Of a stretch of 64,000 nucleotides of DNA, positions 5,884-64,000 are shown piece by piece. The DNA is taken from assembly GCF_018350175.1 (NCBI RefSeq), contig NC_058377.1, positions 100,378,001-100,442,000 on the forward strand, read 5' to 3'. The notes under the pieces are model-generated. The model was not told the origin of the DNA. It saw only the letters and a list, made by a program, of their open reading frames with translations, and ran no database searches. Each line of letters begins with the position of its first letter. Positions within the stretch are counted from its first letter, which is position 1. Source of the DNA: Felis catus. Taxonomy: Eukaryota. The position numbers were made by a program, and so were the translations under genes.

Positions 5884-6329
5884 TGTTAGCTTCTGGCTTG
5901 AAGTTACCAAAAATCAGAGGCTGAAAGAAGGCTTGTACGTAGGTGGTTTATTCTGGAGGCAGTGAATGGGGAGAGTGAAATAGGGGAGAAAGGCAAGTTA
6001 ATCCAAGATTGTGGTTAAACTGGTTACCATTTATTCTCTGGCTTCTATTTATGAATGGTCTAGGATTTCTTTCAACTATGTTAATCTCTTCATATTTCCA
6101 GGTAGGAGTATGTGCCAGAACAATGAAGTGGGGTTTTCCAAGTATCTCAAGCAACACATGTGGGGACAGGAAACAACAGATGTACTGGGAAGTGAAGGTG
6201 TTGGTGGAGGGATCAGTAGGATGGAGCTCTTGTCAGGCTATACTGTTAGCAGTTGGTTGCTGTGTCAGTGGCTGGAGCAAAAAGTAGGTCAAGAAGGTAT
6301 AAGACACAGTGAAAAAATTGTCCAGCACA
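5884..6329. mobile_element. Ancient ERVL (LTR16-like) LTR relic just upstream of the first OR
   Basis: caaaaatcagaggctgaaagaaggcttg...ggtttattctggagg and the terminal tgtccagcaca resemble my recollection of LTR16-family consensus. Heavily diverged. Confidence 0.4.
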
Positions 6330-6410
6330 CTCAATGATTCCTGATTCAAAATAGTATTCTTTTGTAGATTTTCCAGCTCAGTGTGGTGTGCTTATCTCAG
6401 CCCAAAGTAA

Positions 6411-7418
6411 ATGGAGAATCCAAACAATGCGACTGAATTCATTCTTTTGGGCATCACAGAGAACCCAGAGCTGCGGAAAATGCTCTCTGCTGTGTTTCTA
6501 ATCCTGTACGTGTCCACGGTTTTGGGGAACCTACTCATGGTGGTAACCGTGATCACAAGTCAGAGCCTGAGGTCACCTATGTATTTTTTCCTCACTTCTT
6601 TGTCCCTCATGGACGCCACCTACTGTTCTGTCATTGCCCCCAAGATGATCCTGGACTCCTTCTCCGAGAGAACTACCATCTCCTTTGAAGGCTGCATGAC
6701 CCAACTCTTTGCGGAGCATTTCTTTGGTGGTGTGGGGGTCATCCTTCTCGTCGTGATGGCCTATGACCGCTACGTGGCCATCTGTAAGCCCCTGCACTAC
6801 CCGAGCATCATGAACCCTCGGGTGTGCCGCCTGCTGCTGGGAGGCGCCTGCGTGGGGGGGTTTATCCACGCAGCGATACAGCTTCTCTTCATGTATCAAA
6901 TACCCTTCTGTGGTTCCAATGTCATCGATCACTTCATGTGTGATTTGTTCCCATTGCTGAAACTCGCCTGCATGGACACCCATGCCCTGGGTCTCTTAGT
7001 CATCCTCAACAGTGGGGTGATGTGTATGACCATCTTCCTTATCCTCGTGGCCTCCTACGTGGTCATCCTCTGCTCCCTGAAGTCTTGCAGCTCTGCGGGG
7101 CGGCGCAAAGCCCTGTCGACCTGTGGCTCCCACCTCACTGTGGTCGTCTTGTTCTTCGTGCCCTGCATTTTCCTGTACGTGCGGCCTGTGGCCACTTACC
7201 CCATAGACAAAGCAATGGCTGTGTCCTTTACCATTGTTGCACCCATGTTAAACCCCCTGATCTACACCTTGAGGAATGCAGAGGTGAAAAATGCCATGAG
7301 GAAATTGTGGGTCAAGAAGGTAGAAGACACTTCTATACAAGAAGGTATAAGAAACAAACAACCCTGGGGTGTCACTAATTTGTATGCGAAGGGCAAATCA
7401 TTCCTTCAAGGACAATGA
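6411..7418 (+). CDS. Olfactory receptor, family 4 subfamily C; OR4C6-like 5' 800 nt with a divergent TM7 and a non-canonical 35-aa C-terminal tail
   Basis: 335-aa ORF with OR motifs GN (TM1), [45 protein letters not shown]. Pyrimidine tract plus TAG acceptor at 6366-6367, 43 nt before the ATG. 6411-7210 is nearly identical to the - strand gene at 63043-63842. Confidence 0.95.
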
Positions 7419-8479
7419 GGTTTTGTCCCTCCACCATTCATCCCAATCCATTGGGCACATGGCAACCAGTAGCATTTTTAATATGCAAATCACACTAAGA
7501 CACTACAATCACCCTATTTCCCACCTCTCCAGTACATTTTATACTCCATCACTTTTCTTACTAGATTCTGGCCACTCTTTTTTCTTTTTTTTTTTAAACC
7601 TGTTTTTTTTTTTTTCTTTTTAAACAATTCAAGCCTGATTTTCAATAATTCAAGTCTTGGTTCAGGGCTTTTGTTTGTTCTTATTCTGTTCACTGCTGGA
7701 CTTCTCTTTTCCAGAGATTTCGCTTGGTGGGCTCCACCTCATTTTTTCCATCTTCGGATGAACTCCCACATCCTTAGATAAGTCTGTCCTGATGATTTTC
7801 CCTAGTCATTCTTCCCTCAGTTACCTCTTCATTCCTGGATTCACTTTACATTTCTCGACCTTGCCTCATGTCAAGAAGGAAGAAAAAGCCCATGAAAGCA
7901 TAATAACTTGCTCTCTAAAAAATTTAGGATGATAATTTTTCTATTTTAATTATAGAATTAAAGAACTGGAAAGGTCATAACGATATCCCTAGCCTTACAT
8001 ATTTGTAATGTGTATGGTAATTTTCCCCATATCAAAAGCAGGTCCAAAACCTACATCTTCTCTTACAAAGGTGAGAGCTGTTCTTACCATTTGTGCTGAA
8101 ATTATTACCTGTCAGTTAGATTTCACAAATTCCTTCTCATATCTGCCCTATGGGTTCCCCAAATTAATTCACGTTAAATACCTTTGCTCATTAAACATAT
8201 TTCTTAGGAGCTCAGTGCCTGACTTTTTAAACCCTAACATCTGAAACAAATATTGATCTTACTACTTTTTTATAGGGATTTGCTGTTACTAGTGTAGTTT
8301 GTAAATTTCATATGATTATGTAAAATTGAAATATGATAAAATATGAAAATTCAATATTATTCATGATGCAAAGGCATAGCAAAATAGGGTAAAATGGTGC
8401 TTTAATTTGAAAAAGAGTATATGCCTAAAAAGCCCTTGCAAGCATCACATTTTGGGGGAAACATTAGATGGACTTTCTT

Positions 8480-30588: not shown

Positions 30589-31879
30589 CATGGTGAAAAA
30601 TGTTAAATGTTTTCACTTAGTTTATGATTAAGGCGTAATTTGTGCTGCGGTGTGTGTATTCAGCAGTCAGCAAAGGTTATGAGTTCCAGAATGATTGTAC
30701 TGAGAAGTCTTGGGTCCCGTTGAGTGAAACTGGACGGATGCAGTTTAGTGCAAACTGTGACCCGACATGGCATCTGCTCAGCCACCTCAGTTACATGTTG
30801 TTTTGAGGTGTCGTGACAGTGACGTTTCTTTGGTGTCGTGTATCGAATCTAGTGAAGTGCCATCATGAGACAGTCGTGTTGGGCAGCCTTCCTGTGGCAC
30901 AGGTGTTCCCAGGGACATCAGTTTGGAGCTCAGAGGCAGTATATGGCTGAACTTTCTCATTTCCAAGAGCAGCAGACAAGAGTACCCTCTCGTCGCTCCG
31001 TGTGTGCACAGTATGAAGCCACATCTGCCTGTGACTGCAACATGCCTTCCGTCGGTGCACTTCTATTCGACTTTAAAGTGTTCGTTCTTTAGACTTCAGT
31101 TGTCTAGTTTTGAAGAATGTTTTTTAATTCCCATAATTCCTGGGGCCTCAAATTCTGATCCAGCCCTGGAGTCAATTTATAGCTCAGAGACACAACGTAA
31201 CAATTTTGGTAAAGACAGATTCTGCTTGGAGAACTCAAAGGTGCCAAACATAACTCCAAAATGTGGCACAATCTTCAGTAGGTTGACTGTCAATCCATTC
31301 CAGAGCCCTAGTTCCCCTGGGGCTTTCCCTGTCCACTGCTCCTGAGAAATGGACATCTACTCCTCTAAAATGGGGGAGGTAGGAGCTCTGAGCCTTCATC
31401 TCTTTCTTCACCGTGTAGAAGGGAGAGGATCTGGGCCACCGCAGTAGCCAGGCAGACACTGGCAAAGTTGCGGGGGAGAGAGAATCAATCTCGGGGCCCA
31501 GTCTAGATTTTCTCTAGGTTCACAAAAACTAGAAGGGTGACAGTAGAGAAACAGTAAGGGAAACCCCCCAATAAAGTGTCAGGAACACTTCCTCTTCAGA
31601 AACAGTAGAAAAATACAGAGGATCCCCCTATGAGATGGTTTCAGCACATTCTGCACAACAGCCTGGTTTTGATGAGGTCTGTATTTTTTACAATGGTGAA
31701 AACCATGTCTGCCAGACTTCCAGCCATGATGGAGCTCCACTGGGATTATGGCCCAGGTCATCCATGAACAGCACTACAAATTTCAGCAGGTACAGTTCTG
31801 CAGGGGAAGAAGTGCAGGCATGCCATCGTGTTTTCCTTCCATGTGCTGGAATCCCCGGGGTTGTGGGAAGACCCCTTGA

Positions 31880-32515
31880 CTTTTCCTTAGGGCAGAGACA
31901 GGTGTGGAGCATTTGGTAAATGAAGTGAGACGTGTCCCTTAGGACAGACTGGAGGGGGAGAAGGGCTCTGAGGACAGAATCTGCCCACTGACAGTCTTGT
32001 TCATGAATCCTTGGCACCATGGTTTGCTGTGATTGGGATTAATTGTGCTTATCCTTTGAGGTGGGAAGGGCAGAGTCTTTGTCCCTCCAAAGGCTCAGCA
32101 TTTGTGAACGTCTATGAAATCTCTATAAATATCTGATGGAGGAGGAAGAAATGTTAACTCATGTGCTCTTCCAGGGTTTTTTGGGGGGGTTACAGAGCTG
32201 CTTTTAGAGATGTTCCTATCATAGAATAGTGGGGATGTTTCCTTTTTATTCTCGTAAGTTTTAAGAATAGAAGTGAGAAATTTTATGCTGATATCACAGC
32301 CCTAACTCAGGCCTTCTAGGAAAGACTGGCTATCCGTGGAGTATCTCCTCTCCCCACAGACCCTGCACTGGAAAGCTGAGTAAATTTATTGGATGTACGT
32401 TTCCATGTTGCACACTTACTGCACATGATTCATCTTCAAAGTAAATCCGAATTGCGAGAGCAAATCGAGGAGCTCTCTATTGGATCTCATCTCCTTTACG
32501 AGCAATAAGGTAAGT
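31880..32515 (+). promoter_or_regulatory. Candidate promoter and first non-coding exon of the OR at 39418
   Basis: TAATTG at 32040, O/E-like TCCTTTGAGG at 32052, TATAAAT at 32124, donor AAG|GTAAGT at 32510. Confidence 0.55.
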
Positions 32516-32837
32516 TTTCAAACCCAAGTAAACTATGTTCTTTTCCTTGCCTTCCATGCAGGACTGGGTTTTAGGGCAGTTGCCATGATTTAATTCTGTC
32601 TCCTGAGAAGCTTGAAGCTCCAGGAACATATTTATCTCTGTGATGAGAGGATCTGAATGTGTCAGGGCTCCCAGCTTTCACTGGCCTCTGCTTGAGGCAG
32701 CACTGTCTCCGGAAAAATTCTTATCGAAAGGGTGGGGGGTATATTTGAGGGGGCAGAGGTATAGTGTCCTCTACATATGGGTTTCTTTTTCTTTTAATGG
32801 ATTAAATAAGCAGCTGATCCTCAATTTTCTTTTACTC

Positions 32838-33042
32838 AGTTTAAATGGTTATTTATTTCACAAGAGAAAGAGAGAGGAGAGATAGAGAAAGAGAATGAGT
32901 GAGGGAGGGAGAGAGAGAGAGAATCCCAGGCAGGCTGTCAGCCCAGAACCCAATGTGGGCCTTGTCCCATGAACCGTGAGATCATGGCCTGAGCTGAAAT
33001 GAAGGGTCTGACACATAACTGACTGAGTCACCCAGGGGCCCC
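32838..33042 (-). mobile_element. CanSINE shared with duplicate B (about 48580-48791)
   Basis: Same position and orientation in both duplicates. Confidence 0.88.
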
Positions 33043-33060
33043 TATACAGGTGAATTTCTT

Positions 33061-33284
33061 TTTTTGTTGTTTAAATTTTTAAAAATGTTTTATCTATTTT
33101 TGAGAGAGTGTGACAGAGTGTGAGCAGGGGAAGGGCAGAGAGAGAGGGAGACACAGAATCTGAAGCAGGCTCCAGGCTCTGAGCTGTCAGCACAGAGCCC
33201 AACGCGGGGCTCGAACTCACAAACTGCGAGATCACGACCTGAGCCAAAGTCCATGCTTAACCAACTGAGCCACCCAGGAGCCCC
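33061..33284 (-). mobile_element. CanSINE specific to duplicate A
   Basis: TSD caggtg(a/g)atttctt. Absent at the homologous site near 48800. Confidence 0.92.
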
Positions 33285-34053
33285 CAGGTGGATTTCTTAT
33301 TTACAAGGTTTAAGATCAGGAAAAGGACCAGGTTGTACACTGACCATATGCAGTCTGTATGCATTGTTACAGTCGATACCACGATTCTATGATGCACTGA
33401 AAGTTCTGCCAGTCGTGATACTAAAGTGGTCTGTCCAGACCCACTGTCACCCCTGCTCACAGCTAAGAATTATATTCTCTTTCTGCTGTTGGGGTAAGGG
33501 GTATATATGGAGTGGAGGAATGAGAAGCAAACTCTCTCGTGAAATCCGAGACAAGTACTCTTTATCTCTAACAAGATTCTTTGCTCAACCTTACACTGTG
33601 GGCTTAAATGATAAATGTGAACATAAGTAAATATAAATAAACAGAAACATAAATATAAATATAAATTCTGCTCTCTTTTTTAATCCCTCTACAATTTGCA
33701 TCCATTTGAGAGTCAGGGTACATACTGGGGATGGCAGTGCTTTTCTTCTCTACTGGTTCATGGTTTCTGGCTTTATGCCGGCTCCACCCAAATGAATGGA
33801 GTCTGATGCTTTGCAGGGCAGTGGTGGGTGAGGTGTGGAGTGTTTGAGAGGGAGAGATGACCATGGAGCACAAAGGTTTGAGTTCTGGTACTGGTTGCTT
33901 TTTGACGGCTCTCTGCTAAGCTGCTTCCCAGCCTAGTCGGACGTGCACAAAATAGAACAATGTGAATTTGCCTAATGAGATATAAATTCCAATGAACAAA
34001 GATTTTAAAGAGAGAAGGAAAGAGGGGTATAATCAAGGGTTGCATGATTCAAA

Positions 34054-34054
<1 letters not shown>

Positions 34055-34084
<30 letters not shown>

Positions 34085-34108
34085 GACACACACACACACA
34101 CACACACA
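34055..34108. repeat. (CA)n microsatellite; paralogue at about 49580-49633, another at about 42580-42634
   Basis: Direct reading. Confidence 0.95.
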
Positions 34109-34837
34109 TTTTAACAGTTGAAGGCCATTAGCAAGAAAGTCATTTGGGAAAACCTGGAAGGCTGTGCCGAGGAGATGGACAGGGTACTCTGGATCCAGGA
34201 AGAAATGGAAGGTGGAAGTTGTATCAGAGGAAGTCACATAACCACTAAGAAGTACTTAAAATTTAGGAAATGAGACGGTCGGGACATATTCATGAGGGAC
34301 AGCAAGTGTCAGGCATGGCTGGAACACACACGAGCAGAAGCCCTGGGAGGAAAGATGGTAAGCAAGACTATGGCACAGCATTTGAGGACTTTGAAAGTCA
34401 TGGTGAGTATTTCAGCCTTTGCACTTGAAAACCACAGTAACCCTTTAATCTTAAGATTCATCATAGTTTTAGAATGTCCACTTTTCCTTTTGAAGTTGTA
34501 GCTATGAGGTAAAAGAAGGGAGAAGATAGAGAACAAGGAGAAGAGGGAACTTCTGAAATTGTGTCCTTTCTTTCTGTATAGAAACAGAGGGTCTACTTAA
34601 AGAACTGTAGGATTGACCATTTGTAATACTTCTGTTTATGAGTAACCAGCCCAATTTTGTACTATGTTTGAGCTAATAATGCTCACAGTGAAAACTCACA
34701 TAGTTATCTCCCGCGATGTGTTATTTTCTTCAACAAAATGGTGTGAGACATTTTATTTAGATTTGAATGAGTATTAGACACTGTGTGAAAGGAATATTTA
34801 TGTCCCATGTTTTGAGAATCTAAACTGATCCTGTTTT

Positions 34838-35130
34838 TAGCTCAGTGAAAATACTCTGCATGATATTACGATGATGGATGTCTGTTACTAATATGTACCG
34901 AAACCATAGAATGTACCACACCCAAGAGTGAGCCTTGGGGTAAACTCTGGACTCTGGGTGATGAGGATGTGTCACGGTAGGCTCATCAGTTCTGGGAAAT
35001 GTGCCATTCTGGCGGGCAATGTTGGTAATGGCAGGGGTGATATTTGGCTGGGGGCTAGGGATCTTATGGGGAATCTCTGTACCTGTGTCTTGGGGTTGCT
35101 GTGAATGTAGCACTGTTGTAAAAAAAAAAC
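34838..35130 (+). mobile_element. Old L1 (L1MC-like) 3' fragment; paralogous copy at about 50370-50655
   Basis: gtgaaaatactctgcatgatatt...gtaaactctggactctgggtgatg...gggaatctctgtac, followed by an A tail. Confidence 0.65.
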
Positions 35131-36037
35131 AACCTCTTGACAACAAGTACAAAATAAAAAGCAGCAACAACCAAGTGATCTTATCAAAGCTGAGAGGAGG
35201 CATGTGATTTTGCTGCCTCCTCCCCGCCCCCCACAGAGACAGCTGAGAGGGAGCCCATCTGCTCCTCTTCTGAGAGGGGAAGGGACAGGTCTGGAGTCAC
35301 CACTGAATCATACTCGGGATGCCTGCTGGGTCAATCTTCATTCTGTTGGGGCCACAGTGAATTCACCTGTATGCTCTCCATTGAGTTTCTAAGTGCAGGG
35401 ATGTACAAAAACTGATGTCTTCAGTGCAACCCTGACATCTTGAAGGGAGAAGGCACCTCATTCCAGATAAGCCCAAATCCAATTGGACTAAATTTAGAAA
35501 ACCAGATGATTAAATTTTGATAAACAGCTGAATGATTCTGTTCTTCTGTGCTGAATAAATCTTAATAAAATCAGCTCTCATATCTTGTATATCTCCAAAT
35601 CTTATACTTGACTGTAAAAATATGTTCAGATTTCATAACGTGGCTTCCATGGCCTTTGGCAGAGACGAAACCTTGCTTTTCCAAGTTTTTCTACTATGAC
35701 GCTAGAATCAGTCTAAACCACCAGCAGTTTCATATTGACCTTGTCTATTTGTCCCATTATCCCCATTAAAACTTTGGTTCGTTTCTTTCATGTCAAATGC
35801 TCTCACCCCTCTGATTTTTGTATCTTTGGACCACAAACTCTTTACAACCAAGGGTATGTTTTATTTCTACTCTCATGTCATCATGGGTCACATTTAGGGA
35901 AGCTGTTTGCACTTTGTATTTGTTTTTTAGTATTTATTAAGGATATTTGGAGGTGCCATTCCCAGCTTCTGATCACCATGAGCAAATTAGCAGAAACCAC
36001 AGTGCCGAGGTGATTTCAGTCATTTGAGGAAGGAAAT

Positions 36038-36882
36038 TGTCATAGGCTCTGGCTGTAAAATTCTCTTTTGTCTGGCAAGAGAGTGGGACACAGGATGAAA
36101 AATGAGAGATGGCTAATGTCTGGGAAAGACAAGAGCCCTGAATAAGTGTCCTTGCCCTGTTTTTATTAGGATCAGAAGGTGATGGATGTGCACAAAGAGA
36201 GAATGAATTTGTCAACATTAACTTGCGGTTGTGAGGGAAAGGGGGTCCTGAAGGTATTTGGGGTTAGGCATTTGGGTTAATACAAAACAAAAGCTGGGTG
36301 CAGGGCAATCGAGAGGAAGGTTGTTTACAGTGGATATGAGGCAGAACCTCTGTTTACCTTAGCTAGCCTAGGGGATGAGGCAGGTAGGGGAAATAACCTC
36401 AGAGTTAACAAGGCACCTTTTCTTTTGTTAACCCTCTCTGTTCTGGGCTGCTTTGCCTGCAGCGCAGCAGTCCACAGTCCAATTCACCAATTTACCTAAC
36501 TGGGCCCTATCCTCCTGCGAAAGCAGCTTTTCTGATGTAGTACTAAATTGGGAATGCTTTCAACCTGAACATCTAATCTTGTTTATTTCATATACCTATG
36601 TGTTGGGCACCTTTGCGCCTGTTCCTATTTTAGGCCTTTGCCAATCCCTCTCTATTCTGGGGGTTCTTCACTGGTGTCTATTTTGGGGTGCCTTTACACC
36701 TCCCTATTCCTTCTTGGCACCTTTTTGCCTCCTTATACTCGGGGTGCCTTTGCAACTCCCTATTCTTGGGGTGTCAATCTGGCTAACTCAAACTCGGGTG
36801 TGACTGTTCTATGACTGTAATTCTCTATGCCTTGTTAACCCATTGGTGTAAGCCCAGAGGATTCCTAAGCTTATCCCCCACA
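36038..36882 (-). mobile_element. ERV solo LTR (845 bp), probably class II/beta-like
   Basis: TG...CA termini, flanked by GGAAAT/GGTAAT. AATAAA on - near 36161-36166. Empty site in copy B at about 51790-51800. Confidence 0.85.
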
Positions 36883-39417
36883 GGTAATTAGTGTGAAAAC
36901 AGTTGTGCAACTGTATTAGGGGTAAATGAACAGGTAGATTAATATCTTGATAATATTAATAATTGTAATACAACATTGATGCTAATAATCTTAATGAAAG
37001 GACCATTCCAAAAGCATGTACTGCCTATCTGCATCTCTTATGCATTGTACATACTTAATTATTTAGCTTTCATAGAAACTCTAAAAAGTAGATTATTTTA
37101 CTCTTCACATTTACAGGTGAAGAAAATGAAGCCCAGAGATATAGCGGGACTTGTGCTATATGGCACCATACTGTGCAGGAGTTGGGATATGAATCCAGGT
37201 GGTTCAGCTTCAGCTTTGATGCTCTGTCACTGTGCTAACCTACCTCTCTGCTCTGCTTTAGGATGTTTGCATCTCAGGGAACCTGGTTCAGAATCTGACT
37301 TTCTTCAGTTAAAGCTGTAGTTCATCCCTTAACATAATCTGGAGTTTTTCACTGATCCATCTGTCTCTTAGGAATTTTTACACTTCTGTCTGCAGATGGT
37401 TTCTATTCTTCTAATACCAACCACATAGTCCCTTACATAATGAATGATTTCATCTACATGTATCTTAAAACTTAAAAATCATTAAGAAGAAGTGAGTATT
37501 TTATGTTATGTTAAAGTAGCTTTCCCCAGCTAGTAAAAAGTGGAGCTGGGATTTGAACCCAAGACATCTGACTGGAGCCACTGTGTTCTTGACCAAGAAA
37601 TGTAGTTATTTTCTTGATGAATAGCCATCCTAGATAAAATATCAACATTACAAAATATGAACTGAACAAACATAAAATAATTCTTGTAAGAGCAATACTT
37701 TCATTAAAAAATGTAGTAAACATGTAAAAAAATGTAGTAAAAATGTAACATGTGGCTGGTGATAAAAATGTGTATGTATATAACAAAATGCAATTTTTTT
37801 ACTAACCAAATGAGAGAATAAGATCATGTCATAAAATAACCTTTTTTGTTTGTTTGCATCTTCTGTAAAATCATGAACCTTGAAATATTGACCATATGTA
37901 TATAGTAAAAAGATGTGGAGATAAACACAAATATAAATATACTTAGAGAATGTTTCTTAAAAGACATATAAAAAAACCGATAGTTATTTCCGAAGAGTAG
38001 GATTATAGATACAATAATTTGAAGACAGCTTTTAAATTTTCTTTCATTCTTCTGTGTACTTGGAATAATTAATGACAGTCATAAATTATTTCATAATAAA
38101 ATATAGTTAATAAATGTACACAAAATATTGAAAAACGTTTTTAATAATTGTCAACAGCAACGATAATCCCTAGCATTTGGGACAGCGGCGTCATACTTGG
38201 GAAATTAAGTTGTTATCTGTGTGAGTCAAAATTAGAAGCGACATAAATATCTCAAAAGACAAATGATCAAAGAGATGCCACTTAAAAAGCTTTATACAAT
38301 GTCACATAATTAAATTAACAGTTAAACTAATGATAAGTATAGTAACATGGGAAGAAGGGTTATAGTAATCCGAAGTCAAAAATCAGGACACAAAATGATA
38401 TTATATGATGATTTCAGTGACAAACTCAACATGTTATGAACAAATACTTGAAATAGAATAATTATAACATAGTATGTTGGAATTATGGGATACTTTTCAA
38501 ATGAAATTTTTAGAAGCATGCTGGTGACTTCAGGGTAAAATGAACATCTCTGAGTAACTTCTCTGATGCCTATTTATATTATAGGCATCATTAGGAATTT
38601 TATAGCATGTTGAATTCATAGGCAAAGATGCTCAATATTCTGAGTTTAGTCCCATAGTACAGTCAAGAGGGTAAACAGTTTCCTCAATTATTCCAACCAC
38701 AAAGTTGTCCTGACATTTGTTTTATAATGATATCAGAGAAGCTGACATTGAACATGAGAGGTGTAAGTAAAAGATTGTCAAAACAGACTTTTGTAAAGCA
38801 TATTACATCCAAGATACAGATGGGATCAGAGATGAAGGGGTCAGGAACCTAAATGAGTGAACTGAACAGAGAATATTTTCTTCCAGAGGGATTCTCCAAC
38901 AATATGAGTGCTTAATCATAGTGGAATAGAATTTTTTTTATTTCAAAGCACATAGATAACACCTATATGTGTATCTGTGTGCATATACAATCTTTTAATT
39001 CTTAAGGAAACTCAGGATCAGGTAAGGCAAATATTTGCACTCCCTTTTTCACATGAAAGCTAAATTATGAGACAGTTAAGCCACTTGCCCAAGGACAGTT
39101 CAAGTTCTGCAGTTTTCAATCTTGGTGGGAATCAGAATTTTTAAAGGACATTTCATTTTACCTCCCCAAATGCAAAGGCTTTGATCCGAAGTAGTTAGTT
39201 TCTGAATCAACAGATAGATCTGGGAGAGGCTTGGGATCTGCGGATTTACCAAGAGTCAAAGAGGATTGAAGGCAGTCAGAAGTAACATAACATGGAGCAA
39301 AAGCAAGGCATTCAGAGTTCAGCCCACCGATCTTCCCAAGCTGTCACTTCTTTTCTTCTCTTTGCAGATTCAGCCCTTGTCCTCAACTGCACCTTACTTT
39401 CAGCCAGTAGTATTACG

Positions 39418-40326
39418 ATGAATAGCAGTGTGACTGAATTCATTCTCCTTGGGCTGACACAAGATCCGGTAAAGCAGAAGGCAGTATTCGGGGTCTTCTT
39501 GATCTTTTACCTTGCGACACTGTTGGGGAACTTTCTCATTGTAGTGACTATCAAAACAAGCAGGACCCTTGGGACTCCCATGTACTTCTTCCTATTCTAT
39601 CTGTCTTTTGCTGACACCTGCTTCTCTACAACCACAGCCCCCAGATTGATTGTGGATGCCCTTTCTCACAAGAAGACCATTTCCTACAATGAGTGCATGA
39701 TTCAGGTCTTTACATTCCATTTCTTTGGGTGCATGGAAATCTTGGTGCTCATCCTCATGGCTTTAGATCGCTATGTGGCCATTTGTAAGCCCTTGCGATA
39801 CACAACCATCATGAACCGGCAAGTGTGCAGCGTTTTGGTGATTCTAGTGTGGGTGGCATCTTGTATCCACTCTTTGGCACAAATTTTCCTGACTTTGAGA
39901 TTGCCTTTCTGTGGCCCCAACGTGATTGACCACTATTTCTGTGACTTGCAGCCCTTGTTGAAACTTGCCTGCATGGACACTTATGTGACAAATTTGCTAC
40001 TTGTTTCTAACAGTGGAACCATATGCACGGTGAGTTTCATAATCCTGCTTACCTCCTATGTTGTCATCTTGTACTCTCTGCGTAACCACAGTGCTGAAGG
40101 AAGGCGAAAAGCCCTTTCCACCTGCACCTCCCACTTTATTGTGGTTGTCTTATTTTTTGGTCCATGCATATTCATATACACACGCCCCCCAGCTACATTT
40201 CCAATAGACAAAATGGTGGCTGTGTTTTATACAATTGGGACGCCCCTGCTCAACCCTCTGATCTATACACTGAGGAATATGGAAGTGAAAAAAGCCATGA
40301 AGAAATTATGGTGTAGCAAAGAATGA
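39418..40326 (+). CDS. Olfactory receptor 4C11-like, duplicate copy A (302-aa core from MNSSVTEF)
   Basis: Intact OR motifs. Acceptor ttttcttctctttgcag ends at 39367, 50 nt before the ATG, so the 42 extra codons in the ORF track are mostly intronic/UTR. Confidence 0.93.
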   Translation: MNSSVTEFILLGLTQDPVKQKAVFGVFLIFYLATLLGNFLIVVTIKTSRTLGTPMYFFLFYLSFADTCFSTTTAPRLIVDALSHKKTISYNECMIQVFTFHFFGCMEILVLILMALDRYVAICKPLRYTTIMNRQVCSVLVILVWVASCIHSLAQIFLTLRLPFCGPNVIDHYFCDLQPLLKLACMDTYVTNLLLVSNSGTICTVSFIILLTSYVVILYSLRNHSAEGRRKALSTCTSHFIVVVLFFGPCIFIYTRPPATFPIDKMVAVFYTIGTPLLNPLIYTLRNMEVKKAMKKLWCSKE

Positions 40327-41373
40327 CTTCTTTGGATATAGGATATTCTGGGATTCTAAAGTATTTTTCCTTGACAGCTTAGTTTTCCTTCATGGACAGG
40401 CAAGATGAATTATTCTCATTGTGGGAAAAATCCATTAGGAAATTTTAATTTCACTAATATTTTATATATTTAATTGAATTATTATGAATAAGTACGAATA
40501 AATACACATCCCTTATTCAGAGAGGATGGCATTAAAATAGGATTACTTAACACCCATAACCACTGTGAACATCCTGGGCTGGCTCTCAGTTGAATTCTTT
40601 TGATAGCTGGCCATATTCACATGATAATTTCTCTTCTTGTACAATTTGTCTTCAGAAAAAAATATACTGACTATTGACAGAATGATTGTGTGTGTGTGTG
40701 TGTATATGTGTGCACACACCAATTCTTCACAGATTTCATTCTAGTCCTTAAGAACTTGGATATAGAGCTAATCCCTATGGAACCAGAACTTAGAGATGAA
40801 TGTTGTGGTCTGACAACCTGGGAGTTGGAGAAGATGTTCTGAGAAAATTCTGCGGTGGAATGTGTGCCTGAGGCTGATTCACTGGGACATGGATGGACCC
40901 TCAAACTCCACGAAAATCTGGAAATCTCAGTGAAAACCTGGACTGTCACTGGAAAACACTCTCAGTGTTCAGTGAATGGTGGGAGAAGGAGAGTTTTACA
41001 CTTGGCAGTGATGGGTGGTATCAGCCAGGAACTGCTTTTGGCAGGGTCCTTCGCTTTCATTGTCACAGATCAAGGGTAGCGCAATGAGGGGGTCACAATG
41101 AGGGGGTTTGGCAGCAGGAATATGCAGAAGGTTAAGGGGTAGAAGGGCGGCTAGAAAGCAATGTACAGTGTACAGAAAGCAAAGGTGAAAGGAAAGTGGT
41201 AACTATATCCAGGTGGGATAGAAGAAGCTTTGCTTTTTTATATTAACAATCACTTTTTGGATATCTGAACGTTTGCAGGGAAACAAATGCACTTTTGGGT
41301 ATCTCTATAAAATTGACGTAGATTGGCTTGACGTCCTTGGCTGTTACATTTATTTGCATATCGGGAAAACACT

Positions 41374-41404
<31 letters not shown>

Positions 41405-42599
41405 GGGTTCCCAATGGTGTCTGAAAATTCAAATTTCATATTCCTCGGGAGAAGCCAGGATTGAAGGTCCACATTAGTGCTTTTCAATTCTGGTCTTCTG
41501 GTTTTGTAGGAGAATGTTTGAATACATAGTTTGATTTTTGAAGTTAACCAATTGAGATGTGTGATGAACACCCTACCACCATAACCACCACCACCTCCGC
41601 CACCACCACATCGTAATCTCATAATTAAGTACCGTCATGTGATGCTGTTTCAGTATCTGAACTTATAATTCCCACCAAATTGGCACCAAGAAGAATTACT
41701 TCAAGTGATATAGGCTAATGAGAAAAGAATCCAATGACCTACATAAGTATGTGCAATACCAACTGAAGACCAAATGTTATCATGTCCCATCAAAGATGCC
41801 CAAGACTCCTACATAGAAAGAGGTGGCAGAATAAAGGGCTAAGTCCCAAGGAAGACATTCGTCAGAGCTCTCAGTGCCAGAGTTACAAGAGGCAATTATG
41901 TTTTATGTTCTAAGTGAAGACTCAACATATTCCTAATTTTGTGTCTTGCAGTTTCATTTCTGAAGCATTTGAATCTGGTCATATGAAGGTTATATTTAGA
42001 ACAATTGCAGAAATTTTCTTGTCATGCTTAGTTCATTTAGATGCCAGATTCTCTTAGATGTTAAAAAAAGTCTCAGTTGGAAGGGGTGGGAGAACTTGCA
42101 GGGAACTGAAAGATCTTGACCTGGTACCTTAACAAACTGCCTCACTGTCTCTTCTTCTGGTAAATGGTGAAAGCTTTTTATTTGCCTTCCTTCTGGTGGC
42201 TTTTTGTAGGCTCTCTAATTTTAGCGTCCTTGATGTGGAAAGATTTCTATTTCTTGTCATCACTGATGACCCCTTGTTAGCCCTTAGAAAGCCAGTGGTT
42301 CAGTTCCAAATTCTGTACTCTTCCCAGTGAACTCTTTTGGGCTGGTCCCTAAAAGATCACTTTCTGTCTTCTCTGTGGCAGTTTGTGGGAAACATCCAGG
42401 CATCTCTGCTCCCAAAGTGTTTTATCAAATAAGAAACATTTCTAACATAGACTGATGTCAACCAGTCACCCTCATCTAATACCAACCAGTCTCTCTTCCT
42501 TCCTTGACTTTACTTACCTCAGTCTGCTCAGTGCACCCATATGGAAGGTCCCATGCTAGGTTCTCAGATTAGGGCTCCATCACACACGCACATGCACAT

Positions 42600-47105: not shown

Positions 47106-47454
47106 TAAAAATGTCTTAATTTCCATATTCTTTCTCTTCTCTCTTTACCTACTGACTCAACTGACTTCAAAATATTTAGAATTTTTAATGAGTAGGTTTC
47201 ATTGTAATTATATATTTTATGAGTCTCATTAAGATTTATTGTATTGTATCTAAGAGTGCCATTTTCTAGAATGAGAAAGAGGGGTAAGTTTAGAAACTTG
47301 CTTAAAGTGACAGAGACACACATAGTGAAGCTAGAATTCAATTATATCACCTGTGGTTTAACCTGTACATGGGCTCTGAGTTTTGTGGGGTTAGAAAATA
47401 TTTGGCTTAAAGAGCAGAGCATTTGGGAACTTTCAGTGATCTATACCTGCTTGC

Positions 47455-48105
47455 TTTTTCCATAGGGCAGGGACAGGACTGGAGCACTTGGTAACTGAAG
47501 TGAGAGGTGTCCCTTAGGACAGACTGGAGGGGGAGAAGTGCTCTGAGGACATAATCTGCCCACTGACAGTCTTGTTGAGAATCCTTGGCACTGTGGTTTG
47601 CTGTGGTCAAGGATTGACTGAGTTTATCCCTTGGGGTTGGGTGGGAAGGGCAGAGTCCTTGTCCCTTCAAAGGCTCAGCATTTGTGAATGTCTATGAAAT
47701 CTCTATAAATATCAGATGGAAGAGGAAGAAATGTTAATTCATGTGCTGTTCCAGGAGTTTTTTTTGGGGGGGTGGGGGTTACAGAGCTGCTTTTAGAGAT
47801 GTTCCTATCATAGAATAATGGGGATGTTTCCTTTTTATTCTCGTAAGTTTTAAGAATAGAAGTGAGAAATTTTATGCTGATATTACAGCCCTAACTCAGG
47901 CCTCCTAGGAAAGACTGGCTATCTGTGGAGTATCTCCTCTCCCCACAGACCTTGCACTGGAAAGCTGAGTAAATCTATTGGATGTACGGTTTACATGTTG
48001 CACACTTACTGCACATGATTCATCTTCAAAGTAAATCTGAATTGCGAGAGCAAATCGAGGAGCTCTCTATTGGATCTCATCTCCTTTTCAAGCAATAAGG
48101 TAAGT
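47455..48105 (+). promoter_or_regulatory. Candidate promoter and first non-coding exon of the OR at 54628
   Basis: O/E site TCCCTTGGGG at 47627, TATAAAT at 47704, donor AAG|GTAAGT at 48100. Confidence 0.55.
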
Positions 48106-48310
48106 TTTCAAACCCAAGTAAACTATATTCTTTTCCTTGCATCCTATGCAGGACTGGGTTTTAGGGCAGTTGCCATGATATAATTCTGTCTCCTGAGAAG
48201 CTTGAAGCTCCGGGAACATATTTGTCTTAGTGATGAGAGGATCTGAATGTGTCAGGGCTCCCAGATTTCGCTGGTCTCTGCTTGATGTGTCATGGTCTCA
48301 GGAGCAAATT

Positions 48311-48440
48311 TTTAAGAATATAATTTGTTGTCAAATAAAAATATGGAATGCTTCACGAATTTGCATGTGATCCTTGCGCAGGGGCATGCTATCTTCTCTG
48401 TGCGTTTCAATTTTAGGAATTGTGCTCTGAAAGCCAGCAC
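48311..48440 (-). pseudogene. RNU6 pseudogene: U6 snRNA retropseudogene (48337-48440) fused to about 25 nt of L1 3' end (U6-L1 chimera)
   Basis: aaaaatatggaatgcttcacgaatttgcatgtgatccttgcgcaggggcatgctatcttctctgt...gccagcac is the reverse complement of full-length U6 with substitutions. It is followed on - by atttgacaacaaattatattcttaaaaa, resembling the L1 terminus at about 27531-27563. Absent from copy A. Confidence 0.92.
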
Positions 48441-48579
48441 ACTCTGGACCAATTCCTTGGAAAGGGGTGTTTATATTCGAGGGGGCAGAGGTATAGTACC
48501 GTATACATGTGGGTTTCTTTTTCTTTTAATTGATTAAATAAGCATCTGACCCTCAATTTATTCATTTACTTATTTACGT

Positions 48580-48791
48580 ATTTAATTTAAATGTTTGTTT
48601 ATATTTTTGAGAGAGAGAGGAGAGAGAGAGAAAGAGATAATGAGTGTGGGAGAGAGGGAGAGAGAGAGAATCCTAAGCAGGCTGTCATTGCAGAGCCCAA
48701 TGCTGGGCTTGATCCCATAAACCCCAAGATCATGACTTGAGCTTAAACCAAGAGTCTGACACATACCTGACTGAGCCACCCAGGCACCCCC
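48580..48791 (-). mobile_element. CanSINE shared with duplicate A
   Basis: gaatcctaagcaggctgtc...gagccacccaggcacccc. Confidence 0.88.
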
Positions 48792-49587
48792 TATACTTTT
48801 GAATTTCTTATGTATAAGGCTTAATGTTAGGAAAAAAGGATTGGATTGTATACTGACTGTACACTGTCATTATGCATTGGCACTGTTGATAACACGATTC
48901 TATTATATACTTATTGTTCTGCCAGTCGTGATACTAAAGTTGTCTGTCCAGACCCACTGTCACCCCTGCTTGCAGCTAAGAATTATATTCTCTTTCTGCT
49001 GTTGGGGTAAGGGGTATATATGGAGTGGAGGAATGAGAAGCAAACTCTCTCGTGAAATCCAAGACAAGTACTCTTTATCCTTAACAAGATTCTTTGCTCA
49101 ACCTTACACCGTGGGCTTAAATGATAAATGTGAACATAAATAAATATAAACATAAATAAACAGAAACATAAATATGAATATAAATTCTGCTCTCTTTTTT
49201 AATCCCTCTACAATTTGCATCCATTTGAGAGTCAGGATACATACTGGGCATGGCAGTGCTTTTCTTCTCTACTGGTTCATGGTTTCTGATTTATGCCGGC
49301 TCCACCCAAATGAAAGGAGTCTGATGTTTTGCTTGGCAGGGCTGGTGAGGTGTGGACTGTTTGAGAAGGAGAGATTTCCATGGAGCACAAAGGTTTGAGT
49401 TCTGGTACTGGTTGCTTTTTGGATGCTCTCTGCTAAGCTGTTTCCCAGCCTAGTCTGAAGTGCACCGAATAGAACAATGTGAAATTCCCTTATGAGATTT
49501 AAAAATCAAATGAACAAAGAAATTAGAGGAAGAAAAAAGAAAGAAGGCTATAGTCAAGGGTTGCATGATCCAATAAATACACACACA

Positions 49588-49634
<47 letters not shown>

Positions 49635-51454
49635 TTTAACAGTTGAAGGCCATTAGCGAGAAAGTTGTTTGGGAAAACCTGGAAGGCTCTGGTGAGGAGA
49701 TGAACAGGGTACTCTGGACACAGGAAGCAATGGAAAGTGGAAGTTTATCAGACGAAGGTCATTTAGCTACTAAGAAATGTTGAAAATGTAGGGACTGAGA
49801 TAGTAAGGACATATTCAGGAGGGACAGCAAGTGTCAGGCATGGCTGGAACACACACGAGCAGAAGCCCTGGGAGGAAAGGTGGTAAGCAAGACTATGGCA
49901 CAGCGTTTGAGGACTTTGAAAGTCATGGTGAGTATTTCAGCCTTTGCACTTGAAAACCACAGTAACCCTTTAATCATAAGTTATGATTCATCATATTTTT
50001 AGAACGCCCAGTTTCCCTTTTCAAGTTGTAGCTAGGAGGTAAAACGAGGGAGAGGATAGAGTGAGGAGACGACGGAATTTCTGAAATTGTGTCCTTTCTT
50101 TCTGTATAGAAACATAGAGGGCCCACTTAAAGAACTGTAGGATTGACCATTTGCAATACTGACGTTCATGAGATACCAGTCCGATTTTGTACTATGTATG
50201 AGCTAATAATGCTCACAGTGAAAACTCACGTAGTTATCTCCCTTTACATGTTATTTTTCTTCAACAAAATGGTGTAAGACATTTTATTTAGAATTTGATG
50301 AGTATTAGACACTGTGTGAAAGGAGTTTTTATGCCCCATGTTTTGAGAATCTAAACTGATCCTGTTTTTAGATCAGTGAAAATACTCTGTATGATATTAC
50401 GATGATGGATGTCTGTTACTAATATTTACTGAAACCATAATGTACCAACCCAAGAGTGAACCTTGGGGTAAACGTTGGACTCTGGGTGATGAGGATGTGT
50501 CACGGTAGGCTCATCAGTTCTGGGAAATGTGCCATTCTGGCAGGCGATGTTGGTAATGGCAGGGGTGATATTTGGGTGGCGGCTCGGGACCATATGGGGA
50601 ATCTCTGTACCTGTGTCTTGGTGTTGCTGTGAATGTAGCACTGCTCTAAAAAAATTAAGTCTTAGCAACACAAAGAAACTAAAAAGCAACAACAACCAAA
50701 AGATTGTATCAAAGCTGAAAGGAGGCGTGTGATTTTGCTGCCTCCTCCCCGCCCCCCACAGAGACAGCTGAGAGGGAGCCCATCTGCTCCTCTTCTGAGA
50801 GGGGAAGGGACAGGTCTGGAGTCACCACTGAATCATACTTGGGATGCCTGCTGGGCCAGTCTTCGTTCTGCTGGGGCCACAGTGGATCCACCGGTATGCT
50901 GCCCATTGAGTTTCTAAGTGCAGGGAATTCAAAGATGGATGTCTTCAGGGCAACCCTGACATCTTGAAGGGAGCAGGCACCTCATTCCAGATAAGCCCAA
51001 ATCCAACTGGACTGTGTTTAGAAAACTAGATGAATAAATTTTGATAAACAGCTGAATGATTTTGTCCTTCTGTGCTGAATAAATCTTAATAAAATCAACT
51101 CTCATATCTTGTATATCTCCAAATCTCATACTTGACTGCAAAAATATGTTCAAATTTCATAACGTGGCTTCCATGGCCTTTGGCAGAGACGAAACCTGGT
51201 TTTTCCAAGTTATTCTACTATGACACTAGAATCAGTCTAAACCAGAGGTTTCATATTGATCTTCTCTATTTGTCCCATCATCCCCATTAAAACTTTGGTT
51301 GGTTTCTCTCATGTCAAATGCTCTCACCCCTCTGATTTTTGTATCTTTGGATCACAAACTCTTTACAACCAAGGTTATATTTTATTTTCACTCTCATGTC
51401 ATCATGGTTCACATAGAGAAGCTGTTTGCATTTTGTATTTGTTTTTTACTATTT

Positions 51455-51678
51455 TTATTTATTTATTTTTAACATTTATTCATTTTTGACAGACAAAGAG
51501 AGACAGAGTGTGAGTAGGGAAGAGGCAGAGAGAGACGAGACACAGAATTTGAGGCAGGCTCTATCTAGGCTCCAAGCTGTCAGCACAGAGCCGGATGTGG
51601 GGCTGGAACTCACGGACTGCAAGATCATGACCTGAGCCAAAGTCAGTTGCTCAACCGACTGAGCCACCCAGGCACCCC
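51455..51678 (-). mobile_element. CanSINE specific to duplicate B
   Basis: TSD tgtttttta(c/g)tattt. Empty site in A at about 35921-35935. Confidence 0.92.
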
Positions 51679-54627
51679 TGTTTTTTAGTATTTGTTAAGG
51701 ATATTTGGAGTTGCCATTCCCAGCTTCTGATCACCATGAACAAATTAGCAGGAACCACAGTGACAAGATGATTTCAGCTACTCGGGGAAGGAAATATGTG
51801 TGAAAAACAGTTGTGCAGATGATATGGGTAAATGAACAGGTAGATTAATATCCTGGTAATTTTAATAATCATAATGGAATGTTGATACTAGTAATCATAA
51901 TGAAAGAGCCATTCCAATCACAGTTACTAAATACCTGAATCTCTTCTGTGTCGTACATACTGAATTATTTAGCCTTCACAGAAACCCTAAAAAGTAGATT
52001 ATTTTAATCTTCATGTCTACAGAGGAAGAAAAAGTAGCACAGAGTTATGTAGGGACTTGTGAAATATGGCACCATACTGCGTAGTGAGTGGGGTATGAAT
52101 CCTGGCTGTGTGGCTTCAGCCTGGATGCTCTGTCATTGTGCTAACCTACCTCTCTGTTCTGCTTTAGGGGATTTGCATCTTAGGCAACCTGGTTTAGAAC
52201 TTGAATTTCTTCAATCAAATCTATAGTTCATCTCTTAACATAATCTTGAGTTTCTCACTGACCCATCTATCCTTTAGGAATTTTTACTCTTCTCTTTGCA
52301 GATGGTTTCTATTCTTCTCATACCAATCACATAGTCCCTTACATAATTAATGCTTTCATCTATGCATATCTTAAAACTCAAAAATCATTAAGAACAGGTG
52401 AGTATTTTGCCCAATCTTCGCAATAAGTCCAGATAATTGTGATTTGATATTTAAAATCAAAGATAATTATGGAATTCTGAGAGAAGGGAACAGGCAGTAC
52501 AATTTTAAAATGTTTTGAAACAAACACCAAATTAGAATGGGGGAATGGACAGCTTGTAATAAAAGAAAAGGAAAAAAGTCATAGAAAAGGGAAAAAGTAA
52601 AATCATAATAGGGAAAGTAGCAGAGGCGGGGACTTACATAGTTCTCGCTTATTATAAGCTGGATCTTTTTCTCATTTTATCTACAGTGTAACCATGGTTA
52701 TGTGTAAAGTAGTTTTCCCCAGCTAGTAAAGAGTGGAGCTGGGATTTGAACCCAAGACATCTGACTACAGCAACTGTGTTCTTGACCAAGAAATGTAGTT
52801 AGTTATTTTCTTGATGAACAGCCATCCCAGATAAAATATCAACATTGCAAAATATGAACTGACCAAAGATAAAAAATTTCATAAAAGCAGTATTTTCATT
52901 AAAAATGTAGTAACAATGTAAAATGTGGTTGGTGATAAAAATGTATGTGCATATAACAAAATACAATTGTTTTCTACCAACCAAATGAGAGAATAAGATC
53001 GTGTCATAAAATAACCTTTCTTGTTTGTTTGCATGTTCATCAGCTTTTTTGCAAAATCATCAACCTTGAAATATTGACCATATATGTATATAGTAAAAGG
53101 ATGTAGAGATACACACATTTGTAAATATACTTAGAGAATGTTTCCTAAAAGACATTTCTAAAAGAAAACCAAAAGTAGTTATTTCTGGAGAGTAGGAGTA
53201 TAAATTCAATAATTTGGAGACAGTTTTAAATATTCTTTTATTCTTCTGTGTCTTTTGAATAACGAATGATAGACATGAATTATTTCATCATAAAATATAG
53301 TTAATAAATGGACACAAAATGTTGAGAAACATTTTTAATAATTATCAACAGCATGATGATCTCTAGCATTTGGGACAACAACATCATACTCGGGAAATTA
53401 CTTTAGGTTGTTATTTATGTGACTCAAAATTGGAAACTATATAAATAACTCAAAGAACAAATGGTCAAAGAGATGCCACTTACAAAACTTTATACAATGT
53501 TGTGTAATTAAATTAACAGTTAAACTAATGATAAATATAATGACATGGGAGGAAGTGTTATAATAATTCAAGTCAAAATCAGGACGCAAAATGATATTAT
53601 ATGGTGATTTCAGTGACAAACTCAACATGTTATGAACAAAAACTTGAAATAGAACAATCATAACATAGTATGTTGGAATTATGGGATACTATTCGGTTGA
53701 AATTTTTAGAAGTATCCTGGTGACTTCAGGGTAAAATGAACATCTCTGAGTAACAACAGGCATCATTTAGATTATAGGCATCATTAGGAATTTTATAGCA
53801 TGTTGAATTTACAGGCAGAGATGCTCAATATTCTGAGTTTAGTCTCACAGTAGAGTCAAGAAGGTAAATAGTTTTCCTCAATTATGTCAACTTCAAAGGT
53901 GTCCCGACATTTGTTATATAATGGCGTCAGTAAAACTGACATTGAACAAGGGAGGTTAAGTAAAAGATTGTCAAAACAGATTTTTATAAAGCATATTTCA
54001 TCCAACATACTGATGGAGTCAGAGATAAAGGGGTTAGGGGCCCAAAAATGAGTGAACTGAACAGAGAATACTTTCTTCCAGAGGGATTTTCCAACAATTT
54101 AATTATAGTGGAATAGTGTTTTCCAGATTTCAAAGCACATAGATAAAAAAATGCATAACACATGAGATATATGTGTGTATCTGTGTGCATATACAATCTT
54201 TTAATTCTTAAGGAAACTCAGGATCAGCTAAGGCAAATATTTGCACTCCATTTTTCATATGAAAGCTAAATTATGAGACAGTTAAGTCACTTGCCCAAGG
54301 ACAGTTCAAGTTCTGCAGTTTTCAGTCTTGGTAGGAATCATAATTTTTTAAGGACATTTCATTTTACCTCCCCAAATGCAAAGGCTTTGTTGACCCAAGG
54401 CAGTTAGCTTCTGAATCGACAGATAGATCTGGGAGAGGCTTGGGCATCTGCTGATTTACCAAGAGTCAAAGAGGATTGAAGGCAGTCAGAGGTAACATAA
54501 CATGAAGCAAAAACAAGGCATTCAGAGTTCAGCCCACCGATCTTCCCGAGCTGTCACTTCTTTTCTTCTCTTTGCAGATTCAGCCCTTGTCCTCAACTGC
54601 ACCTTACTTTCAGCCAGTAGAATTGCG

Positions 54628-61080: not shown

Positions 61081-61219
61081 NNNNNNNNNNNNNNNNNNNN
61101 NNNNNNNNNNNNNNNNNNNNNNNNNNNNNNNNNNNNNNNNNNNNNNNNNNNNNNNNNNNNNNNNNNNNNNNNNNNNNNNNNNNNNNNNNNNNNNNNNNNN
61201 NNNNNNNNNNNNNNNNNNN
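61081..61219. other. Assembly gap (139 N)
   Basis: Run of n. Confidence 1.
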
Positions 61220-62879: not shown

Positions 62880-63842
62880 TTATGGGAGACATGATGCTCT
62901 TAGCATGACACGCACCTGCCAACAAAAGCCCCCCCCTTTCCCCCACAGTTTCCCCATGGCAGTTTTCACCTCTGCGTTCCTCAGGGTGTAGATCAGGGGG
63001 TTTAACATGGGCGTGATGATGGAATCAGACACGGCCATTGCCTTGTCTATGGGGTAAGTGGCCACAGGCCGCACGTACAGGAAAATGCAGGGCACGAAGA
63101 ACAAGACGACCACAGTGAGGTGGGAGCCACAGGTCGACAGGGCTTTGCGCCGCCCCGCAGAGCTGCAAGACTTCAGGGAGCAGAGGATGACCACGTAGGA
63201 GGCCACGAGGATAAGGAAGATGGTCACACACATCACCCCACTGTTGAGGATGACTAAGAGACCCAGGGCATGGGTGTCCATGCAGGCGAGTTTCAGCAAT
63301 GGGAACAAATCACATATGAAGTGATCGATGACATTGGGACCACAGAAGGGTATTTGATACATGAAGAGAAGCTGTATCGCTGCGTGGATAAACCCCCCCA
63401 CGCAGGCGCCTCCCAGCAGCAGGCGGCACACCCGAGGGTTCATGATGCTCGGGTAGTGCAGGGGCTTACAGATGGCCACGTAGCGGTCATAGGCCATCAC
63501 GACGAGAAGGATGACCCCCACACCACCAAAGAAATGCTCCGCAAAGAGCTGGGCCATGCAGCCTTCAAATGAGATGGTAGTTCTCTCGGAGAAGGAGTCC
63601 ACGATCATCTTGGGGGCAATGACAGAACAGTAGGTGGCGTCCATGAGGGACAAGGAAGTGAGAAAAAAATACATAGGTGATCTCAGGCTCTGACTTGTGA
63701 TCACGGTTACCACCATGAGTAGGTTCCCCAAAACCGTGGACACGTACAGGATTAGAAACACAGCAGAGAGCGTTTTCCGCAGCTCTGGGTTCTCTGTGAT
63801 GCCCAAAAGAATGAATTCAGTCGCATTGTTTGGATTCTCCAT
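62880..63842 (-). CDS. OR4C6: Olfactory receptor 4C6-like (320 aa)
   Basis: OR motifs intact. [28 protein letters not shown] is the atypical TM7 I recall for human OR4C6. Acceptor ttttag at 63885-63886, 42 nt before the ATG. One-to-one orthology is not verified. Confidence 0.85.
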
Positions 63843-64000
63843 TTATTGGGTGCTTATATGAGCTCCAGCTGGGAGCTGGAAAACCTAAAAATGCAACATA
63901 TGATTTATAATTAGTGATTGTTGGCCTCATGTCTTTCCAGGACCTCAGGGACCTTATTATTTGTTTGTATTCATTTATTCACTATCCAAGCATTTGGATC

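Follow-up and report, generated by a model that had tools for sequence, protein, structure and literature searches.

Two odorant receptor genes of the cat, which we call gene A and gene B, share nearly identical coding sequence over most of their length and differ sharply in the outer half of TM7. From comparison of the sequences, we consider it probable that the two genes were homogenised repeatedly by ectopic gene conversion and that selection removed the conversions that would have erased this island of difference. The window, that is, the whole 64,000-nt stretch of DNA that was analysed, holds six intact olfactory receptor (OR) reading frames according to its list of open reading frames. 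Genes A and B lie tail to tail with the four other OR genes in between (Table 1). Both were placed among the class II ORs on the basis of a single-exon 7TM reading frame and OR motifs. The best matches of the pair are OR4C6-like proteins and consOR4 (E 1.3e-125 for consOR4), and the nearest database proteins are felid, at 99%. Gene A has Phe at residue 273 (F form) and gene B has Asp (D form). An earlier sequence-only reading of this DNA had attributed the TM7 of OR4C6 to gene B, and this is borne out since gene B shares its form with the dog protein called OR4C6 by NCBI; the dog F-form protein is named OR4C59. A run of 139 N at 61081-61219, located between gene B and the last of the intervening ORs, touches neither A nor B.

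Table 1. Positions in the window of genes A and B and of the features discussed in the text.
Feature	Position	Strand	Remarks
Gene A, OR4C6-like class II olfactory receptor, intact, 335 aa	6411..7418	+	F form (Phe273, Thr274, Met176)
Gene B, OR4C6-like receptor, intact, 320 aa	62880..63842	-	D form (Asp273, Ser274, Ile176)
Homogenised region of gene A, codons 1-267	6411..7210	+	11/800 nt vs gene B
Homogenised region of gene B	63043..63842	-	Partner of 6411..7210
Divergence island of gene A, codons 267-277, outer TM7 half	7211..7241	+	11/31 nt differ
Divergence island of gene B	63012..63042	-	Partner of 7211..7241
Codon 273 of gene A (Phe)	7227..7229	+	Nine residues before Pro of NPxxY
Codon 273 of gene B (Asp)	63024..63026	-	Position equivalent to gene A Phe273
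Codon 176 of gene A (Met), ECL2, directly before disulfide Cys	6936..6938	+	Old form-linked difference
Codon 176 of gene B (Ile)	63315..63317	-	Partner of gene A Met176
Second similar stretch past the island, codons 278-300	7242..7310	+	Partner 62943-63011; 5/69 nt, dS 0.24
Decayed homology around the coding-exon splice acceptor	6361..6410	+	Partner 63843-63891

Identity of the two genes and of their flanks

Aligned without gaps, gene A and the reverse complement of gene B differ at 11 of the first 800 nt (98.6% identity), which confirms the figure given in the sequence-only reading. Five of these differences are synonymous and six are non-synonymous (dS 0.026), and the longest identical runs are 210 and 184 nt. 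The drop in identity that this reading had placed at 7211 is real, but the roughly 80% identity that it gave for the remaining sequence is not uniform. The 31-nt island differs at 11 positions and the 69 nt that follow differ at five (Fisher p 0.0008). Synonymous sites are saturated within the island, and dS over codons 278–300 is 0.24, nine times that of the tract. Because dS is this high beyond the island, recent exchange in the window does end near the island.

Identity between A and B also drops upstream of the ATG. The earlier claim of a collapse at this point was right as to the fall, but some homology persists. About 63% identity is left over ~80 nt (82 columns) around the splice acceptor, and a distant block of 750 columns is 58% identical in the same orientation (E 4e-20). 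This block is 7.5–8.2 kb upstream of A and 3.4–4.1 kb upstream of B (L017:8170-8892 on the plus strand and L015:4213-4910 on the minus strand). The A-side piece is single copy, matching only itself in the genome, and no match to the block was found upstream of the four other ORs of the window. The block is a candidate for an ancient shared promoter or 5′ exon. Each copy contains an O/E-like site, as judged with a simple pattern. The independent promoters proposed for the two genes are not supported, as the upstream regions retain an old homologous block. Flank hits between A and B are otherwise short and of the size of interspersed repeats. Comparison of 10 kb of 3′ flank from A with 7.3 kb from B gave five hits of 130–241 nt at 66–86% identity, none of them collinear; the 3′ flanks, which had been described as unrelated, do not align.

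As a control we used a younger duplicated pair in the window (39418/54628), which has a CDS dS of 0.129 and flanks that are 86–87% identical. Because A and B have not kept flanks of this kind, they are not a young duplication. Their high identity ends sharply and their flanks have diverged like those of an old duplication, as expected for gene conversion. No third close copy that could act as donor was found among 40 scored of 283 genome candidates, the next best being 72% identical. Flank DNA from other mammals, sought through metagenome contigs, came from two loci at 49% and 72% identity and was uninformative. GC3 of A and B is ~0.72, the highest of the 25 cluster genes examined by a small margin of 0.04–0.05 over the next (0.68).

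Mosaic blocks are common in this cluster, with two further pairs found among the 300 pairs of the 25 genes examined. L010 and L011 (G000:C21:100.11-100.12 Mb) share ~420 nt with seven differences, compared with 9–17 per 60 nt elsewhere; their flanks are unalignable and their GC3 is 0.66–0.67. L006 and L008 (G000:C21:100.17-100.20 Mb), which are 77% identical overall and have unalignable flanks, share ~120 nt with five differences. The window also contains a segmental duplication (31875-42380 vs 47450-56839, 83–91% identity) with two related ORs at 39292-40326 and 54502-55536, and a third copy of the duplicated OR segment (L018) is present beyond gene B. In all three of these ORs, an in-frame ATG precedes the usual start by 42 codons.

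The tails of the two genes were also compared with those of other felids. A 21-nt stretch at 6287-6307 recurs (20/21) at 7310-7330, right after the Lys-Leu-Trp codons of gene A, and a partial third copy is found at 7335-7355. About 38 nt in the tail of gene A look like a templated insertion from 1 kb upstream. The insertion displaces the ancestral F-form tail, which comparison with meerkat and hyena shows to be still legible at 7361-7378. Among the other felid F proteins, five end at the insertion; the window's gene and that of the fishing cat read on to 335 aa, and the fishing-cat protein carries gene A's entire tail. The gene B tail (62880-62942, minus strand) has a frame that differs from that of six of seven other felid D proteins through the length of a G-run, which is either a real polymorphism or a homopolymer error.

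F and D forms in placental mammals

We aligned 166 of 233 fetched proteins (top hits only), leaving out fused or over-long models, members of the OR4C15-like cluster, unnamed records, fragments, and near-duplicates. Evidence from other species is at the protein level, with locus identity taken from TM7 and tails rather than from synteny, and the felid proteins are 15 of 30 felid cluster members. The F form (Phe273) was found in 82 proteins and the D form (Asp, Glu, Asn, or Gly273) in 78; six had neither state. Residue 274 is Thr in 82/82 F proteins and Ser or Ala in 78/78 D proteins. Both forms occur in 13 placental families from Afrotheria, Euarchontoglires, and Laurasiatheria, among them tenrecs, elephant shrew, elephants, squirrels, lagomorphs, and treeshrew. 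Within this top-hit sample, primates, pigs, and colugos have the D form only and ruminants and horses the F form only; such one-form families weaken the idea that both forms are needed. Meerkat and hyena had F-form proteins only, among the proteins sampled.

The tails past helix 8 are divided in the same way. In 99.5 of 124 cases the nearest tail outside the order is of the same form, compared with a mean of 61 and a maximum of 77.9 in 300 shuffles, a comparison that is not a p-value because the rows are related. Because TM7 residues and tails both track form across orders, the forms represent two old loci, and the TM7 of gene A was not taken from an unrelated paralogue. Where the sequence-only reading had seen the TM7 of another paralogue, gene A has a placental-wide sister form within the OR4C6-like group (82/166). 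It is likely that the A and B paralogues date from the placental ancestor. In sloth and armadillo (P0052, P0056) an F-type TM7 is joined to a D-type tail, and it seems that Xenarthra either had the island overwritten or never gained a D form. In one leopard-cat assembly, the models for the two forms (P0127 and P0131) share a contig and are seven accession numbers apart, which is a weak hint at a gene order like that of the window.

The body of the protein gave a different grouping. Over residues 24–267, F and D proteins from the same species or genus differ at 5–6 of 244 residues in felids, 10 in canids, 17 in bears, 21–24 in camel and mustelids, and 28–42 in other groups. Over residues 273–277 they differ at three to five of the five positions in 21/21 such pairs, one of these differences being definitional. 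A and B of the window differ from each other at 6/244 residues and from F or D proteins of dog, bear, and mink at 26–37; at the protein level the paralogues are closer than orthologues in the converted part. Distances to the Panthera orthologues (6–7/244) equal the A–B distance, which suggests that the most recent near-complete sweep is similar in age to the living cat family and not young. This family is ~10 My old.

We also examined residues 1–267 of 27 proteins with IQ-TREE. Both forms were joined within Felidae (100/99), Canidae (100/97), and Camelidae (96/91), and a clade of all F proteins was rejected (delta lnL 144.6, p-AU 4.6e-5). Ursidae and Mustelidae had no supported family clades, and the rhino forms were apart, with rhino F beside horse F. 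D proteins of Euarchontoglires (treeshrew, squirrels, lagomorphs, and primates) cluster by form (0.963). Because grouping by family or by form differs between lineages, the rate of exchange appears to vary by lineage, being strong mainly in carnivores and camelids. The earlier suggestion to group the parts separately thus gave, at the protein level, codons 1–267 by family and TM7 and tails by form. Together with the flanks and the control pair, the tree supports the earlier view that these are old paralogues homogenised by conversion and not a recent duplication.

Retained positions and alternative histories

In the explanation that we favor, purifying selection would keep the single coding exon alike enough to pair while the flanks decay. 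Breaks in one copy would be repaired using the other, 56 kb away, as template; this could go in either direction, with tracts tens to hundreds of bases long. With the inverted layout, a crossover would flip the four genes in between without deleting them. Conversions over residues 273–277, and less strictly over 176, would yield redundant receptors and be lost. The retained sites would keep ancient states and the surrounding sequence would track the host lineage. We infer from the alignments that conversion was the process, that selection acted as the filter, and that different tuning would be the result.

A second explanation also takes recurrent conversion as real but has the island spared passively, through a mismatch barrier 70–100 nt from the homology end and ordinary purifying selection. 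Exchange that stops near the island is also expected from such a barrier close to the homology end. The climb of dS in the window from 0.026 in the tract to 0.24 past the island agrees with this, and a patch with 11 of 31 nt differing could itself be the barrier. We nonetheless regard passive sparing as unlikely because shared derived states flank the island on both sides. Thr268, five codons before 273, is present in both Ursus forms. Beyond the island, Trp300 is missing in 19/19 caniform D proteins and in 16/20 caniform F proteins with alignable tails, the remaining 4/20 having unrelated tails; it is kept in 15/15 felid proteins listed. Ser290 occurs in both canid forms and Thr290 in both rhino forms. 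Since the Trp was lost beyond TM7 in both caniform forms, the divergent part is the 31-nt island and not a tract end. The differences form a divergence peak (11/31 nt, against 11/800 and 5/69 at its sides) with derived states shared on the 3′ side in caniforms and rhinos, although in the window that side is only partly homogenised.

Residue 176 also argues against passive sparing. It is mid-gene, ~290 nt upstream of the island and far from any homology end, and its neighbors 181 and 184 are overwritten in all laurasiatherian pairs. Yet it is Met in F and Ile or Val in D in 10/12 family-level pairs, being the same in camel and reversed in panda. The exceptions among the felid proteins listed are Met in three of eight D proteins and Ile in one of seven F proteins. 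In all, 12 of the first 300 residues differ between the felid pair.

Form-diagnostic positions, defined with seven non-laurasiatherian families as reference, number 11, of which eight are in the body. A and B are alike at seven of these eight, four having the F state, two the D state, and one a new state; the eighth, 176, is still different between them. Residues 181 and 184, which are form-specific in 7/7 and 6/7 outgroup families, are common to both forms in all six laurasiatherian families with both. Residue 17 is common to both forms in all four carnivore families, and 12 derived residues are common to F and D in Felidae. Within Felidae, Thr79 (lynx) and Val208 (Panthera) are each found in both forms, although these are single CpG-prone changes and could be parallel. 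Because diagnostic residues come from both genes and the layers differ in age, conversion appears to have been repeated and two-way, recurring from the laurasiatherian stem to within Felidae.

These layers bear on the original proposal that one recent conversion put TM1–6 of OR4C6 into another paralogue and so created a chimera with the same pocket and a second promoter. The sharp 800-nt tract with unalignable near flanks would be explained by this, and the 12 derived residues in felid F and D proteins indicate one large felid-stem sweep. We consider the proposal highly improbable, however, since canids, camelids, and others have the same mosaic. Transfer in the one direction from OR4C6 to A conflicts with old diagnostic residues from both genes, four of A's line and two of B's. 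Some of the 11 differences (97 and 176) are common to lynx and leopard-cat D proteins and thus not young, and an A–B distance equal to that from Panthera orthologues points to layered exchange rather than to a single recent event. A newly formed chimeric receptor was rejected as a candidate, with exchange that looks two-way and of several ages and with the same TM7–tail combinations in other orders. Lastly, A and B differ at predicted pocket positions, namely that of the conserved TM7 Tyr and the ECL2 residue beside the disulfide Cys, and the idea of one pocket with two promoters is probably wrong.

That OR4C6 was duplicated independently in each lineage and that TM7 then changed convergently is scarcely credible; family-wise clustering of the body is equally expected from such duplications and the number of copies varies, bears and mustelids having two of the F form, but the same switch of three to five residues and a matching tail would be needed many times, and a copy of felid age should keep flanks of ~86% or more, whereas those of A and B are at 58–63% or unalignable. 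The chance of an assembly or polishing artefact, to which the G-run length in the gene B tail might point as it is unlike that of other felids, is negligible given 13 further felid protein records, from other species' assemblies, that have both forms with the same body. In addition, 14 sequencing runs of the species, DNA-type or untyped, are listed as containing 91–98% of the sampled words from 6100-7700, two of these runs being possible sources. The felid proteins comprise seven F and eight D (2/15 are the window's own), with a shared body and locus-specific TM7 and tails.

Under recurrent conversion with selection for the island, the retained residues would be expected to matter for the receptor. 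In the alignment, residue 273 falls in the column of the conserved TM7 Tyr, as seen in consOR4, consOR5, consOR6, and two other solved receptors. In mouse Olfr412 a TM7 Tyr (7x40) packs against pocket-floor residues, according to PMC13025043. Spacing and the alignment to other structures, rather than a direct alignment, suggest that Olfr412 Tyr277 corresponds to column 273. By count, residue 176 sits two residues before the 45x51 acid. This acid pairs with Tyr6x55 in class II activation in the examined text of 10.1101/2023.11.16.567230, which names 45x51 and 6x55 and has no mention of 7x41; nothing on position 7.41 was found in PMC13278317. From their positions, the residues kept different likely set distinct odor tuning of the two receptors. 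The predicted outcome is one scaffold with two pocket floors, aromatic in A (Phe) and acidic in B (Asp), and odor tuning of A and B that would be overlapping yet different.

Related systems and implications

The class of mechanism proposed here is already known, and conversion among OR paralogues has long been known. Sharon et al. in 1999 reportedly described conversion between clustered OR coding regions at primate 17p13 that gave mosaic receptors, and are said to have presented it as a way in which new primate chimeras arise. The A/B pair is similar in having ectopic conversion between clustered OR coding regions, and differs in that it would represent homogenisation over a long time, across placental orders, in which some sites were spared. 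That conversion blurs OR orthology is stated in the accessible part of PMC1794568. No paper on conversion in the OR4C6 pair was found among titles and abstract openings, with few subscription journals covered, and the available parts of PMC3308321 and PMC10463633 contained nothing on the A/B pair.

The best reading of the pair, by analogy, is probably that of a selected divergence peak under gene conversion, as in the red/green opsins. Such peaks are described for the primate red/green opsins (exon 5) and RHD/RHCE by Fawcett and Innan (2011; PMC3924837), who cite Teshima and Innan 2008 and Innan 2003. The likeness lies in homogenised adjacent duplicates with a short peak of fixed differences at plausibly functional sites, and in clustering by paralogue outside the peak and by orthologue inside it. 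Unlike the opsin and RH genes, A and B are single-exon and what is spared is about ten codons and one remote codon. They are also older and placental-wide, compared with 30–40 My for the opsin and RH pairs, and a functional effect is a prediction in their case.

Mosaic pairs with more than 100 My of concerted evolution are BMP8A/B (inverted and 235 kb apart), DDX19A/B, and TUBG1/2, according to the accessible text of Carson and Scherer (2009; PMC2720389), in which "olfactory" occurs 0 times. Like these, A and B are duplicates that predate the radiation, with converted parts that cluster by lineage, possibly raised GC3, diverged upstream regions, and inversion (in one of the pairs there). Boundaries in those pairs are exon-bound. 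The A/B exchange, by comparison, appears to be strong among carnivores and camelids but weak among Euarchontoglires and afrotherians.

Trees and orthologue groups built from OR coding sequence would misdate such pairs; A and B would count as a felid-specific duplication, though both forms are placental-wide. For the majority of odorant receptors in mammals no ligand is known, and it is difficult to pick out tuning residues among dozens of differences. This pair flags about five candidate tuning residues in otherwise matched receptors and is a small direct test of the TM7 pocket-floor position. We raise as a tentative possibility that a coupled two-site switch, Phe/Asp in TM7 and Met/Ile in ECL2, could by itself retune an orphan receptor, in which case the pair would amount to 100 million years of natural mutagenesis, with conversion having removed almost all differences apart from this switch. 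If so, the preferred odorant could change, for example, from a hydrophobic one to one that is basic or hydrogen-bonding, and a scan of OR clusters for spared islands could give a family-wide map of tuning residues.
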